A stretch of 64,000 nt of DNA from Candidatus Woesebacteria bacterium (GTDB lineage Bacteria > Patescibacteriota > Microgenomatia > UBA8517), in the NCBI GenBank assembly GCA_013374855.1, contig CP055308.1, positions 465,833 through 529,832 on the forward strand, in the 5' to 3' direction. Shown piece after piece: positions 11,484 through 59,081 of the stretch. Made by a program: the position numbers and the translations under genes. The notes below the pieces were generated by a model. That model worked only from the letters and a program-made list of their open reading frames with translations. It searched no databases and had not been told where the DNA came from. The number at the start of each line of letters is the position of its first letter. Position 1 is the stretch's first letter.

Positions 11484-11511
11484 TGTTTCGATGTATTAAT
11501 ACATCGAAACA
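11484..11511. repeat. perfect 28-bp palindrome TGTTTCGATGTATTAATACATCGAAACA (copy 1, CGATG subtype)
   Basis: Read directly from the sequence; exact reverse-complement symmetry. Lies in the divergent gap between 11404(-) and tgt, 56 bp upstream of the tgt ATG, and is preceded by TTTTT. Confidence 0.9.
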
Positions 11512-11566
11512 TTAGAATGGCATTATGGAGAATGCTTGAATTTGTTAGAATTAGAATTAGTCTGCT

Positions 11567-12745
11567 ATGTCAGGATTTTCGTTTAAAGTTTTGTTTTCTG
11601 ATAAAAAGTCAAAAGCAAGAGTTGGCTATATTAATACTTCCCATGGGAAGATAGAAGCTCCTGCATTTTCCCCTGTTGCTACCCGTGCCTCAGTTCGCGC
11701 TCTTTCGCCTGATGACCTTCTTGCTTGTAAGACTCAAGTTGTTTTGGGCAACACTTATCATCTTTTTTTGAAACCTGGCACTTCTGTAGTTTCTGAATTT
11801 GGTGGTTTTGCCTCTTTTATGGGCTGGAACGGCCCAACAATTACTGATAGTGGTGGCTATCAGGTATCTTTTATGTGGTCAAAAGGTAAGGGTGTTGAGG
11901 AAGGCGCAAGAGTAGTAAAAATAACAGATGAGGGAGCTTTATTTAAGTCTTATATTGATGGAGCATTGCATCTCTTGACTCCCGAAAAGTCAATTGCTAT
12001 TCAAAAAGCCTTTGGAGCAGATATTATTATGGCTTTGGACCAGCCTCAGGCAAATAATCTTTCATCAAGGAAAGCAAAGGAAGCTTTTGAAAGAACTCTT
12101 AGATGGGAGGAAAGGTCGTTTTTAGAGTGGAAGCGATTGAACCAAAAGGGTAATTTTCAGGCTCTTTATGGGATAGTTCAAGGTGGTTTGGATAAAAAAC
12201 TGCGAAAAAAATCTCTTGATTTTGTTTTAAAGACTGGTTTTTCTGGCATAGCTATTGGTGGGGAAGCAATAGGAGCAGATCCCAAGATAACAGCTTTGGC
12301 GCTTGATACCATTGCTGAGGGGTTACCTAACAATCTTCCTGTTCATGCTTTGGGTTTGGGGGGAGGTCCTGAAGGAATCTTTGAAGCGGTTTCTCGTGGA
12401 ATTGACACCTTTGACAATACGGGTATAACCAGGATGGCACGCACTGGACTTCTTTTCATTTATCCTGAAGATGAGGGAAAAAGAGAAAATAAATTTAGGA
12501 TAGATATTAAAAAGAAGATTTTTGCGGGAGATAAGAGTCCAATTAGCAAAGTTTGTGGATGTTACACTTGTGTCAACTTCACTCGTGCTTATATACATCA
12601 TCTTTTAACATCAGGAGAGGTTCTTGGATTGAGGCTTGCTTCGATTCATAATGTTTATTTTATAAATGATTTAATGGAAAGAATTCGCGAAGCTATCAAA
12701 GAAGGAGATTTTGAAGATTTTAAATCTTTTTGGCTGCAGAATTAA
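11567..12745 (+). CDS. tgt: queuine tRNA-ribosyltransferase
   Basis: TIM-barrel Tgt motifs ([14 protein letters not shown]) and the zinc site [17 protein letters not shown]. Confidence 0.9.
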
Positions 12746-13305
12746 GAGTTCTGAATACCTATAATTTCTCTTATTTTTTCTTCTAGTTGAGAAGAAGTAA
12801 GAGTTAAAACCCAATTTCCTCCTTCTTTATTAGGAGTAAAACGTAGTTCATTCATGGCTTTTTTAAAACTGCCTAATTGGCTGAAAAAATTTTCAAGTTT
12901 GTCAGTTTCATCTTTTCCTATCTGAAAAACAATTATTTGGTTTGTTGGTTCTATGCCTTGCGGATAGGAATAAAGTAGTGTAGCCAGAATTAGTAGTTTT
13001 TCTCCTTCTTTGAGGTGTTTAGACTCTTTTGAAAGCAGCTCAGGTTTTTTGTCCAGTAATGATTTTAAGTTGCGTGATGCTCTGGCAAGGATATTTGCAA
13101 TCAGTAGTATTTTATTCTCCTTATCAGAAAGAGTTTCTTCGAATGCTTTTGCGAGTTTTTCTGGTAGTATTGACACCCCCTTCCAGTTATCAAGCCCGCC
13201 ACCATCTAAAAGACTTATTATTTTGGTACTTACTCCTCCCTCAATGGCAATCTCTCTAGCTGAAGGAAAAGATTTTTCTCTCTGTTCTGGTCTTGATTCG
13301 CTCAT
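12742..13305 (-). CDS. hypothetical protein (187 aa)
   Basis: Intact ORF overlapping the tgt stop by 4 bp on the opposite strand; no motif recognised. Confidence 0.4.
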
Positions 13306-13388
13306 CTCTTAACGATTTCTTGTTTGATAACTTTCTTTGAAAAGTTACTTCTTTAATTATAGAATGGATTGGGAAAAATTGTAAACAG

Positions 13389-13859
13389 ATGAAAGTAAAA
13401 GTACTATTTTTTTCTTTATTTGGAGCTTTTTTAGCTGGTGCCATTGGTTCACTTTTTACTTTTCCTGCGATTCCTGTTTGGTATGAATCTTTAAAGAAAC
13501 CTTCTTTTTCCCCACCAAATTTTGTTTTTGGGCCTGTTTGGACAATGCTTTATATGCTTATGGGAATTTCTTTTTATCTTGTCCTTTCTAAAACAAAAGA
13601 TAAAAAGTTAAAGAAGGATTTGGTCTTAATATACACAATTCAGCTTATTTTAAATACTTTTTGGTCGATTGCTTTCTTTGGATTAAGAAGTCCTTTTCTT
13701 GGGGCTGTTGTTATAGTTTCTCTTTGGTTTGCGATAGTGGTGATGATTATTAAGTTTTTCAGAGTATTGCCTCTTGCTGGCGCTTTAAACCTTCCCTATC
13801 TTTTATGGGTTAGTTTTGCCGGGTATCTTAATTTTTGGGTTTATTATTTAAATTTGTAG
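13389..13859 (+). CDS. TspO/MBR family (tryptophan-rich sensory protein)
   Basis: Five TM helices and the W-rich TspO signature (PVWTMLYMLMGIS...NTFWSIAFFGL...LPYLLWVSFAGYLN). Confidence 0.8.
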   Translation: MKVKVLFFSLFGAFLAGAIGSLFTFPAIPVWYESLKKPSFSPPNFVFGPVWTMLYMLMGISFYLVLSKTKDKKLKKDLVLIYTIQLILNTFWSIAFFGLRSPFLGAVVIVSLWFAIVVMIIKFFRVLPLAGALNLPYLLWVSFAGYLNFWVYYLNL

Positions 13860-57383: not shown

Positions 57384-58608
57384 TATGGATTACAAAGAAA
57401 TTATATCTGAGGCAATATCTTCTTTACTTTTAAATAAAACAAGAACAGGGCTTGCTGCCCTTGGGGTAATTATTGGGATAGGGAGCGTGATAGCTCTAAT
57501 ATCATTGGGGCAGGCAAGCCAAAAAGCTGTGGAGAATCAAATTCAGTCTTTGGGTTCTAATCTACTCACGATTAGCCCAAGAGGTGCAAGTGTGGGTGGA
57601 GTACAAAGAGCGGGAGGGACAGGAACTACTTTAACTTTGGATGACGCGCTTGCGATATTAAAACAGTTTAGAGGTAGTTTAGTGAATGATGTTTCTCCTG
57701 AATTTTCCGGTCGTCGGCAAGTAACTGCTGGTCGCAAAAATATTAACACTCAAGTAATAGGAGTCTACCCCCAATATGCTCAAATTAGGAAAATTCAGAT
57801 AGACAAAGGTTATTTTATTAGCACCAGAGATGTTGAAGGAATGACTAGGGTGGCAGTAGTTGGCCCTCAGGTGGCAATTGATTTATTTGGAGAGGGGACA
57901 AATCCCGTGGGTAAGAGCATAAGAATAGAAGGGATTGCTTTTAAAATAATAGGACAGACTCTTGCTAAGGGGGGACAAGGTTTTGGTAATCCAGATGATT
58001 CTATTTATATTCCTTTATCAACAGCTCAGAAACAAATTTTTGGTGCTAATTATTTAACCAGTATTGCGGTTGAGGTAAAAGATGATAACATTATGACCGA
58101 TGCTCAAAATCAAATAGGCTATTTTCTTCTAGAGAGACATCGTCTTACAAGTCCTGAAAATGCAGATTTTAGTATATTTTCTCAAGCGGATGTTTTATCC
58201 ACAGCTTCTTCGGTAACTTCTACATTTACCACTTTATTGGCAGGTATTGCGGCGATTTCACTTTTGGTGGGGGGTATAGGAATTATGAATATAATGCTTG
58301 TGACAGTTACTGAGAGAACTCGCGAAATTGGACTACGCAAGGCTTTGGGTGCAAAAAACAAGCTTATCATAATTCAGTTCTTGCTTGAGGCGGTTATTTT
58401 GACTTTGAGTGGTGGAGTTTTGGGAATAGTACTTGGAATAACTGTTTCTTTTTTCCTTTCGCACAGTATGGGTTTGCCTTTTACTGTTTCTTTGTTGTCT
58501 ATTTTGCTTTCTTTTGGTGTTTCGGTGTTGGTGGGTATAATCTTTGGGATATATCCTGCTCGTAAGGCTTCTAAGCTTGAGCCTATTGAGGCTTTGAGAT
58601 ATGAATAA
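57364..58608 (+). CDS. ABC transporter permease, MacB/FtsX-domain family (module 2)
   Basis: Same architecture as 38566..39753 (VTERTREIGLRKALGA motif). Confidence 0.85.
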   Translation: MLRNLSNMDYKEIISEAISSLLLNKTRTGLAALGVIIGIGSVIALISLGQASQKAVENQIQSLGSNLLTISPRGASVGGVQRAGGTGTTLTLDDALAILKQFRGSLVNDVSPEFSGRRQVTAGRKNINTQVIGVYPQYAQIRKIQIDKGYFISTRDVEGMTRVAVVGPQVAIDLFGEGTNPVGKSIRIEGIAFKIIGQTLAKGGQGFGNPDDSIYIPLSTAQKQIFGANYLTSIAVEVKDDNIMTDAQNQIGYFLLERHRLTSPENADFSIFSQADVLSTASSVTSTFTTLLAGIAAISLLVGGIGIMNIMLVTVTERTREIGLRKALGAKNKLIIIQFLLEAVILTLSGGVLGIVLGITVSFFLSHSMGLPFTVSLLSILLSFGVSVLVGIIFGIYPARKASKLEPIEALRYE

Positions 58609-58613
58609 AGGAG

Positions 58614-59030
58614 GTGATTAATATGAAAAATAAGTTTTTGTTAGTAGTGATGGCTTTTTCTTTGGTGTTTGGGGTTTTGGGTTTTTGGGGAGGAATAAAG
58701 TATCAACAATCCAAAAACCCACGTTTTCCGGTGCGGAATTTTGCTGGGAATGGTAATTTTCCTGGTCAGAACCAGAATAATTTTCGGCCGGTTAGTGGGG
58801 AAATAATATCAGTTGATGACAAGAGCATTACGGTTAAATTACCTGATGGCTCAAGTAAGATAGTTTTCTTAACTGATTCAACAGTAATTAGCAAATCGGA
58901 TTCTGCCACTAAAGAAGATCTTAAGGCTGGAGAAAAAATCTCTGCTTTTGGAACAGTAAATCAAGACGGTACGGTTGTTGCATCTAATATTCAACTTAAT
59001 TCTGTTTTTCGAACCGGACCACAGCGATAG
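58614..59030 (+). CDS. small membrane-anchored beta-rich secreted protein (paralog of 53326..53718)
   Basis: Signal/TM segment, N/Q/G-rich linker, then the KSITVKLPDGSSKIVFLTDSTVISK...GTVVASNIQL domain. Confidence 0.55.
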   Translation: MINMKNKFLLVVMAFSLVFGVLGFWGGIKYQQSKNPRFPVRNFAGNGNFPGQNQNNFRPVSGEIISVDDKSITVKLPDGSSKIVFLTDSTVISKSDSATKEDLKAGEKISAFGTVNQDGTVVASNIQLNSVFRTGPQR

Positions 59031-59051
59031 ATAATATCGTATGATTACTTT

Positions 59052-59081
59052 TTGTTTCGATGTATTAATACATCGAAACAA
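59052..59081. repeat. perfect 30-bp palindrome TTGTTTCGATGTATTAATACATCGAAACAA (copy 5, CGATG subtype)
   Basis: Exact dyad; 22 bp downstream of the 59030 stop and preceded by a T-tract. Confidence 0.9.

Follow-up and report, generated by a model that had tools for sequence, protein, structure and literature searches.

Dispersed 28-bp palindromes of a Candidatus Woesebacteria genome are predicted operators of the TrpR-family protein whose gene they bracket

Within a 64,000-nucleotide stretch of the Candidatus Woesebacteria contig CP055308.1 (positions 465,833 to 529,832; hereafter the window, in which coordinates are counted from the first nucleotide), we describe five copies of a perfect palindrome, or dyad, with a 28-bp unit. 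Two copies bracket a gene for a 148-aa protein of the Trp-repressor family (22762-23208), and comparison with other genomes makes it likely that the dyads are the operators of this protein. The prediction draws on the association of dyads with genes of this family in other genomes, on a sharply bounded site architecture, and on the likeness of two overlapping sub-sites to published TrpR and HisR operators.

Bacteria of the candidate phyla radiation (CPR, Patescibacteria) are largely uncultivated and encode very few transcription factors; to our knowledge, almost nothing is known about their gene regulation. The system described here pairs a widespread protein family (711 clusters) with a precise 28-bp site that tracks lineage, and its matched protein and operator variants form a natural set in which the evolution of DNA specificity in the TrpR fold can be followed. 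The conserved neighbourhood of the regulator gene, with ftsEX and a cell-wall hydrolase gene before it and a surface protein gene after it, points to control of the envelope or of division.

Five perfect dyads in two subtypes

The window has a G+C content of about 36%, and nearly all of its genes lie on the + strand. A pattern search and the measured extents of symmetry agreed with a first-pass annotation of this DNA, which had reported five perfect dyads of two subtypes (Table 1). Subtype A reads TGTTTCG...CGAAACA and subtype B TGTATCA...TGATACA; copies of one subtype are identical within the window, and no A/B hybrid was found among them. The 14-bp core ATGTATTAATACAT gave five matches at one mismatch or fewer, versus 0.03 expected from shuffles, and the 28-mer TGTWTCRATGTATTAATACATYGAWACA gave five at three mismatches or fewer, each of them perfect, versus 0.00 expected. 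The copy number is thus far above chance, as had been claimed (5 versus about 0). Loosening the 28-mer search to eight mismatches yielded no extra real site in the window.

Again as first described, every copy lies between genes, with a T-rich run ahead of it and no T-run behind it on either strand. Intrinsic terminators, against which that annotation had argued, were rejected, as no U-tract follows, the stems are A+T-rich and terminator prediction was empty at every copy. A mobile palindrome of the miniature inverted-repeat transposable element (MITE) or repetitive extragenic palindrome (REP) type was also rejected, because neither target-site duplications nor common flanks were visible around the five copies and all of these are intergenic.

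The earlier description of the copies as lying 20-70 bp upstream of a + strand start codon held for copies 1 and 2, whose dyads end 55 nt before the tgt start (11567) and 68 nt before the start of the TrpR-like gene (22762), but has to be loosened for the others. The dyad of copy 3 ends 74 nt before the ATG at 23352 (23 nt before the TTG at 23301 that opens the longest reading frame), and that of copy 4 ends 107 nt before the ATG at 53326, which has a GGAGG Shine-Dalgarno sequence (14 nt before a TTG at 53233). From copy 5, the distance is 0 nt to a 40-aa open reading frame (ORF) and 412 nt to the glycosyltransferase gene at 59493.

The sole assembly contig found for the region (Logan SRR6186653_139) ends inside copy 1, at window position 11509, which is consistent with an assembly break at a repeat.

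Table 1. Dyad copies, genes and other features discussed in the text. Positions are those of the window, except for the last three rows, which refer to loci of other genomes.
Feature	Position	Strand	Basis or remarks
DUF5652 gene	11114-11404	-	PF18893, E = 8e-20; divergent from tgt; copy 1 lies 79 nt upstream of its start
Sigma-70-like promoter candidate, TTGACT-17-TACAAT	11452-11480	+	10/12 consensus matches only; ends 4 nt before copy 1
Copy 1, subtype A (TGTTTCGATGTATTAATACATCGAAACA)	11484-11511		between divergent DUF5652 gene and tgt; pattern search
tgt, tRNA-guanine transglycosylase; candidate target	11567-12745	+	TIGR00430, 368.7 bits (cut-off 306.75)
ftsE	19810-20469	+	ABC_tran match
ftsX	20474-21391	+	FtsX_ECD/FtsX match
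Coiled-coil cell-wall peptidase "U"	21391-22566	+	Peptidase_C39 match
Copy 2, subtype B (TGTATCAATGTATTAATACATTGATACA)	22666-22693; perfect dyad 22664-22695 (32 bp)		upstream of TrpR-like gene
Trp-repressor-family gene, 148 aa; proposed cognate DNA-binding protein	22762-23208	+	PF01371 and fold
Copy 3, subtype B	23250-23277; perfect dyad 23249-23278 (30 bp)		42 nt past TrpR-like stop codon
Surface protein "D"; candidate target	23352-24527	+	signal peptide, Pro/Thr-rich linkers, C-terminal transmembrane helix; predicted secreted and anchored
Copy 4, subtype A	53191-53218; perfect dyad 53189-53220 (32 bp)		upstream of two-component operon
Candidate target operon	53326-55406	+	130-aa protein, response regulator, histidine kinase; HlyD/ABC efflux genes next
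OmpR-type response regulator	53715-54380	+
Histidine kinase	54384-55406	+
Copy 5, subtype A	59053-59080; perfect dyad 59052-59081 (30 bp)		23 nt past DUF5666 gene stop
40-aa ORF	59081-59203	+	begins at the base directly after copy 5
GT2-type glycosyltransferase gene	59493-60635	+
In-gene copy, uvrA	L024 6896-6923
In-gene copy, FemAB-like gene	L005 884-911
In-gene copy, RecX-like gene	L003 7188-7215

The bracketed gene encodes a predicted TrpR-fold protein

Both copies of subtype B flank the same gene, one on each side. Its product matched the Pfam family PF01371 (Trp_repressor; E = 5e-12, 46.1 bits against a cut-off of 27), as did all 40 of the relatives that were aligned with it. It fell short of the NCBIfam cut-offs for YerC/YecD (TIGR02531; 31.5 bits, cut-off 42.2) and for TrpR (20.7 bits, cut-off 67.25). 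An AlphaFold2 model based on the alignment of these relatives had a predicted local distance difference test score (pLDDT) of 82 overall and above 90 at residues 10-100. In this model residues 1-100 take the TrpR fold, while residues from about 100 to 148 form a low-confidence, family-specific tail of two helices with a conserved Trp131.

When the model was compared with the Protein Data Bank (PDB) using Foldseek, the top 41 matches were all TrpR/YerC-like, with target-normalised TM-scores of 0.71-0.81. In a profile search of the PDB, E-values were ~1e-11 for the YerC/HisR-type entries 3frw, 3kor and 3g1c and ~1e-3 for E. coli TrpR. The 148-aa protein, modelled as a monomer, is therefore predicted to have the helical fold of the Trp repressor with its helix-turn-helix. 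Motifs conserved in the family are the N-terminal MxQVSK, TPTEK, KRLAI and LKVST. A cut-off of E <= 1e-3 yielded 2313 representative clusters of the family among 1.84 billion representative proteins, and one of E <= 1e-10 yielded 711.

An 80%-identical orthologue with a near-identical recognition helix (KVSTGTVSRI versus KVSTATVSRV) is accompanied by A-type sites where the window has B-type sites, so that subtypes A and B are probably read by a single protein.

The start codon of the regulator gene lacks a Shine-Dalgarno sequence (ctttttaaaATG, 22740-22764); a strong one precedes the ORF at 53326 (GGAGGtgagagtATG, 53308-53328). An extended -10-like element, TGgTATAAA, was also seen about 20 nt upstream of the regulator ATG.

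Dyads and TrpR-family genes are associated in other genomes

The association was approached from the DNA side and from the protein side. A search for the exact 20-mer TCRATGTATTAATACATYGA in 185,579 genomes (one genome per species) returned 23 loci, and a TrpR-family gene adjoined the match in five of these (L002, L004, L013, L020 and L021). As a genome holds at most one or two such genes, adjacency by chance in five of the 23 loci has a negligible probability. In three of the five (L020, L002 and L004), a second, similar dyad lies across the gene from the first. The L021 locus, from a Pirellulaceae metagenome-assembled genome (MAG), has its match at 1661-1688, about 180 bp upstream of a PF01371 gene of canonical length (1170-1478; E = 4e-26) that had been missed by the first protein search; through this planctomycete locus, the link between motif and regulator reaches beyond the CPR.

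MAGs sharing the palindrome are mostly titled as CPR members, namely Woesebacteria, Microgenomates, Roizmanbacteria, Saccharibacteria and Parcubacteria. Seven loci (L002, L004, L008-L010, L012 and L017) come from MAGs titled "uncultured Gammaproteobacteria", with 32-42% G+C; since L002 and L004 carry a regulator cassette of the CPR type, these titles look like taxonomic mislabels. The 20-mer had no match in 2.9 million viral contigs, and a phage or mobile origin of the dyad was rejected for this reason.

On the protein side, 80 metagenome loci encoding homologues were searched, without bias, for any palindrome. A dyad of 22-38 bp was present just 5' of the start codon in about 85% of these loci and just 3' of the stop codon in about 78%, including loci in which the next gene is convergent. 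Strong palindromes were concentrated within 80 bp of the gene ends (108 out of 133 in 537 kb), although such zones make up about 3% of the sequence. The core of the dyad varies by lineage (ATGTATTAATACAT, ATGAATTAATTCAT, ATGATTTAAATCAT, ATGATTCGAATCAT, ATGATACGTATCAT, ATGTACCGTTACAT and GTGGTTTGAACCAT), and the upstream and downstream dyads at one gene resemble one another. Their centres are 463-503 bp apart in most loci and 584 bp apart in the window.

About half of the loci share a gene order consisting of ftsE, ftsX, a coiled-coil peptidase (M23 or C39/CHAP-like), the bracketed regulator and a surface protein; 40 of 74 upstream neighbours fall into one cluster, and so do 39 of 72 downstream neighbours. 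The regulators of syntenic loci are only 35-45% identical to the window protein, and synteny at such depth speaks for old vertical inheritance rather than mobility.

Several individual loci deserve mention. One contig (Ga0082335_1000175; L058 and L080) carries two paralogous regulator cassettes in a single genome, each having its own dyad pair, with the same core and different outer arms. In Desulfosporosinus acididurans, a related dyad, AATTTCAATGTATTAATACATCGAAATT (L018 4668-4695), lies between divergent ORFs whose N-termini, by eye, we take to resemble those of panB and pyruvate carboxylase; no TrpR-family gene was present in the 8 kb around it. The Saccharibacteria MAG CAYJUX (L007, L013, L015 and L019; 57-60% G+C) has the A+T-rich 28-mer TGTATCAATGTATTAATACATTGATACA unchanged; at L013, where it separates the regulator gene from a convergent ORF, perfect symmetry extends over 38 bp (GGGCTTGTATCA...TGATACAAGCCC).

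The site has a fixed 28-bp limit and two overlapping sub-sites

In 109 distinct sites, arm symmetry was 69-99% at positions 1-14 and 28% at positions 15-16; this drop after position 14 indicates a selected unit of exactly 28 bp in every lineage. The triplets ATG...CAT, at positions 5-7 from the centre, were nearly invariant. Mismatched pairs were G-U-compatible in 40 cases when read as sense and in 45 when read as antisense, versus 105 of other types, which is no enrichment of G-U pairs. The fixed 28-bp limit, the lack of G-U bias and the conserved ATG...CAT fit a protein footprint better than an RNA stem. The first-pass annotation had ascribed the selection on symmetry to either a dimeric protein or a hairpin. 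Our results favour the dimeric protein, with the product of the bracketed gene as the candidate, and speak against the hairpin, given the abrupt end of symmetry at 14+14 bp and the absence of G-U bias among mismatches.

A direct periodicity of 8 bp was detected within the site (52% identity at offset 8, versus 20-41% at other offsets), along with secondary dyad axes 4 bp to each side of the main axis (positions 10/11 and 18/19). Taken together, these features indicate that each palindrome is built from a pair of 20-bp quasi-palindromes that overlap (positions 1-20 and 9-28). Both sub-sites have the form TGTA-N12-TACA in the window and the form nnnTTTA-N6-TAAAnnn in most related loci. Published operators are TGTAcTnGTnnACnAgTACA for TrpR, TGTAnTArnnnnyTnTTACA for proteobacterial HisR and cacTTTAn6TAAAgtg for Firmicutes HisR (PMC9413887). 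The sub-sites of the dyads match the first two of these reference motifs and, in most related loci, also the third. The earlier statement that the dyads match no known repeat class has to be revised, as TGTA-N12-TACA is the form of TrpR/HisR operators, which occurs here twice with an 8-bp offset.

Promoter geometry and predicted mode of action

Of 56 upstream sites, 7 have a TTGAC(A/T) box whose position relative to the dyad centre is -36 to -34, and none of 51 downstream sites has a -35-like element. With a spacer of 17-18 nt, this fixed -35 position would make the left arm the -10 element (TGnTAAAAT or TGnTTTAAT); the transcription start would then fall close to the dyad centre, leaving the right arm as a short leader. 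The commonest distance from dyad centre to ATG in related loci is 15-16 nt. The transcription start predicted for the promoter candidate at copy 1 (Table 1) coincides with the left edge of that copy; a promoter-like site on the minus strand, on the DUF5652 side (11439-11411), does not overlap the dyad. Distances from the downstream dyad to the next gene start are spread broadly over 13-115 nt, with no tight coupling.

We propose that two repressor dimers would bind in tandem, 8 bp apart, and together cover 28 bp, in agreement with the sharp boundary of symmetry. The upstream site would overlap the -10 element and the transcription start of the regulator promoter, leading to negative autoregulation. 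Judged by position (the approximately 85% of loci with an upstream dyad, and the 7 of 56 sites with a -35 box), the upstream dyad is a candidate operator of the regulator's own promoter. The downstream bracket site might loop to the upstream one or act as a roadblock to transcription passing through; a cassette boundary is a further possible role. The remaining copies would bring tgt, the surface-protein/vanZ cluster, the two-component/efflux operon and the region preceding the glycosyltransferase gene under common control. Our confidence in tandem dimers, repression and looping is lower than in the dyads as sites of the bracketed protein.

A more far-reaching possibility, which we hold to be rather doubtful, is that palindrome, gene and palindrome form a self-contained module of a TrpR-fold family present, as hundreds of clusters, in several CPR lineages. 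Its dyads would then do more than serve as promoter operators: they may loop to each other, insulate the gene or mark a unit that undergoes copying, by which operators would be homogenised and could be seeded at new promoters and even in coding sequence. Its regulator, beside ftsEX and a cell-wall hydrolase gene, would govern envelope and surface genes.

Several observations weigh against the dyads as operators of the bracketed protein, or against parts of the proposed mechanism. Symmetry over 28-38 bp exceeds what a footprint of 20-24 bp needs, and every window copy is perfect, without hybrids. Across the whole family, two-and-two splits among the four half-sites of a gene followed the site 35 times, the arm 19 times and a crossed pattern 4 times (p = 2e-5 against one third, with about 12 of the 35 site-type splits coming from mis-centred loci), an excess of symmetric changes within sites. 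When helix residues and operator bases were tabulated, ATGT cores went with "LKVS", a link that is confounded by phylogeny. Promoter scans at window copies 2-5 gave nothing convincing, and leaders are longer there. The downstream dyad is kept, without a -35 box, where the next gene is convergent (L083, L093, L097 and L103), and is thus not explained as an operator of the next gene's promoter. Extra copies near the gene are rare in other lineages (2 in about 465 kb, versus 3 in the 64 kb of the window), so a broad regulon may be specific to the window lineage; the dispersed copies may reflect an expansion in that lineage and in a few others with several matches per MAG.

A last point of this kind is that perfect or near-perfect 28-bp copies occur in frame inside genes of Microgenomates and Woesebacteria MAGs (Table 1). 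They encode YRCINTSIQ in uvrA, where the copy sits in a variable linker and adds no length, and GIDVLIHRYK in the FemAB-like gene. Of the copies in other genomes that belong to no cassette, about one third fall within genes, a share still far under the coding density. Of the observations that the first-pass annotation had named as speaking against a functional role, copies inside coding regions were thus absent from the window and found to some extent in other genomes, while duplications of the MITE type were not visible around the window copies.

Alternative explanations

The dyads might instead act as RNA hairpins, whose stems of 12-15 bp would stabilise or process mRNA, mask the adjacent start codon or act as terminators that lack a U-tract, the gene being simply a transcript so bounded. 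Predicted stems would indeed be stable if transcribed (-15 to -17 kcal/mol, z-scores of -5.4 to -6.5), so a secondary RNA effect is possible. Only 0-5 nt separate the dyad from the start codon in many related loci, perfect symmetry in every copy and symmetric changes within a site are what base pairing selects, and in L013 (58% GC) the 38-bp palindrome has GGGC/GCCC ends and stands between convergent genes. Stems under selection would, however, vary in length, whereas the limit is fixed at 14+14 bp in the 109 sites; G-U mismatches are not enriched on either strand (40 and 45, versus 105), and the sequence itself is conserved besides its pairing (ATG...CAT). Moreover, no T-run follows any copy, and where a -35 box is visible, a start near the dyad centre would leave a single arm transcribed. 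The lack of G-U bias and the fixed boundary reduce an RNA hairpin under selection to a minor rival, which we judge very unlikely, although it is the most probable of the three alternatives; a known RNA family was rejected, as Rfam gave no match. The next in probability, and very unlikely as well, is that another protein (a nucleoid-associated, partition or other global factor) binds the dyads, the TrpR-like gene being only its most conserved target. By our own comparison, the outer arms TGTTTC...GAAACA loosely recall parS half-sites, and copies within genes or between convergent genes in other genomes fit a role away from promoters. This does not account for the tracking of lineage between the dyad and the adjoining TrpR-family gene, for the TrpR/HisR form of the operator (PMC9413887), or for the motif beside a TrpR-family gene in an unrelated phylum (the Pirellulaceae MAG); in addition, no other DNA-binding gene was consistently linked to the dyad in related loci.

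We consider least probable of all, and highly unlikely, that the dyads are sites of recombination or mobility, either of the dif/pdif type (28 bp, read as 11-6-11) or as a miniature palindromic repeat, with a movable cassette and solo copies as scars. The length of 28 bp, the variable 6-bp centre and the conserved arms recall Xer-type sites, and the cassette keeps both dyads in loci whose neighbours differ. Upstream and downstream copies share asymmetries in direct orientation more often than in inverted orientation (15 versus 4; p = 0.02), copies of one subtype do not differ within the window, an assembly contig ends within copy 1, and the in-frame copies of other MAGs are reminiscent of palindromic elements that insert into coding sequence. 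On the other hand, about half of the loci keep a stable gene order at a protein identity of only 35-45%, target-site duplications and common flanks are lacking, the uvrA copy replaces a variable linker without added length, and viral contigs had no match. No recombinase turned up among about 40 window ORFs scanned, recombinase linkage across loci not having been searched. Mobility would also leave unexplained why the enclosed gene always encodes a TrpR-fold DNA binder. An identity with dif or parS, at which no dedicated test was aimed, presumably fails on both copy number and sequence. Operators of the bracketed TrpR-family protein thus remain our preferred explanation of the dyads.

Genes around the copies

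The genes next to the copies are listed in Table 1. Judging from its position, tgt would be a regulated target. On the 3' side of the surface protein gene follow vanZ, then a sortase gene, and then a gene for a 2143-aa adhesin-like protein. The region 25087-32225, with the sortase gene and the 2143-aa protein bearing SdrD_B, SpaA and DUF11 domains, resembles a surface adhesin or pilin-like cluster.

Copy 5 is located directly past the two-component/efflux operon and before the glycosyltransferase gene. In the intervening stretch of about 410 nt (59081-59492), of which about 290 nt lie past the 40-aa ORF, we found no ORF of at least 60 aa and no Rfam or Pfam match. The 40-aa ORF abuts copy 5 in the way in which the regulator gene of other lineages abuts its dyad. 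A 24-bp perfect palindrome, TTTTGGAAAAACGTTTTTCCAAAA, inside the DUF5652 gene (11155-11178) is unrelated in sequence to the dyad family. No genes for histidine biosynthesis or uptake adjoin any site of the window, and no tryptophan or other aromatic amino-acid genes were found near any site.

Comparison with known systems

With E. coli TrpR, which has operators at trpEDCBA, aroH and trpR, the system shares the fold and the Pfam family, a TGTA...TACA palindrome with a TTAA-like centre, and an operator at the regulator's own promoter, here as judged by position. Lawson and Carey reportedly showed in 1993 that E. coli TrpR dimers bind in tandem with an 8-bp offset, which agrees with the 8-bp periodicity of the dyads; the corresponding PDB entry, 1TRR, was listed by title among our structure matches. 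The protein described here differs from E. coli TrpR in its length of 148 aa, about 45 of which form an additional C-terminal tail, and in its weak sequence similarity (E ~1e-3), and the dyad differs in being a fixed 28-bp unit, with a second copy past the gene and no tryptophan or aromatic genes nearby.

Dispersed repeats of the REP/bacterial interspersed mosaic element (BIME), Correia and RPE types resemble the dyads as short, near-identical, mostly intergenic palindromes, a few of which, elsewhere, lie in frame. The dyads differ from them in a unit of only 28 bp that is part of no larger element, in their low copy number and in their tight link to one regulator gene. Xer sites (dif, pdif) have the same 28-bp length, which can be read as 11-6-11, and in pdif modules genes are bracketed by two Xer sites, as the regulator gene is bracketed here. 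Five copies in 64 kb, a fully palindromic centre and arms, and no resemblance to the dif consensus argue against such sites, and the bracket around one gene and the bias towards direct orientation are compatible with them.

By sequence and structure, the nearest group is HisR (YerC), which occurs in Firmicutes and other phyla. The 20-bp operator of HisR is palindromic, its consensus depends on the lineage, and about half of genomes show autoregulation (PMC9413887). The HisR consensus cacTTTAn6TAAAgtg (PMC9413887) matches the sub-sites tgcTTTAatgattTAAAtca in most related loci. HisR proteins, however, are shorter than 100 aa, and their regulon covers histidine biosynthesis and uptake; the protein described here has 148 aa, and no such genes adjoin its sites.

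The searchable literature held no prior description of the site, or of the TrpR/YerC (PF01371) family, in CPR, Patescibacteria or Saccharibacteria. A 28-bp fused double operator, with sites on both sides of the gene, has not been described for TrpR or HisR, and the bracket of two operators around one small gene, kept across deep lineages, is thus an undescribed feature of such systems. By fold, Pfam membership, operator form and autoregulatory position, the dyads and the bracketed gene are predicted to be a TrpR-family repressor/operator system, closest to HisR/YerC.

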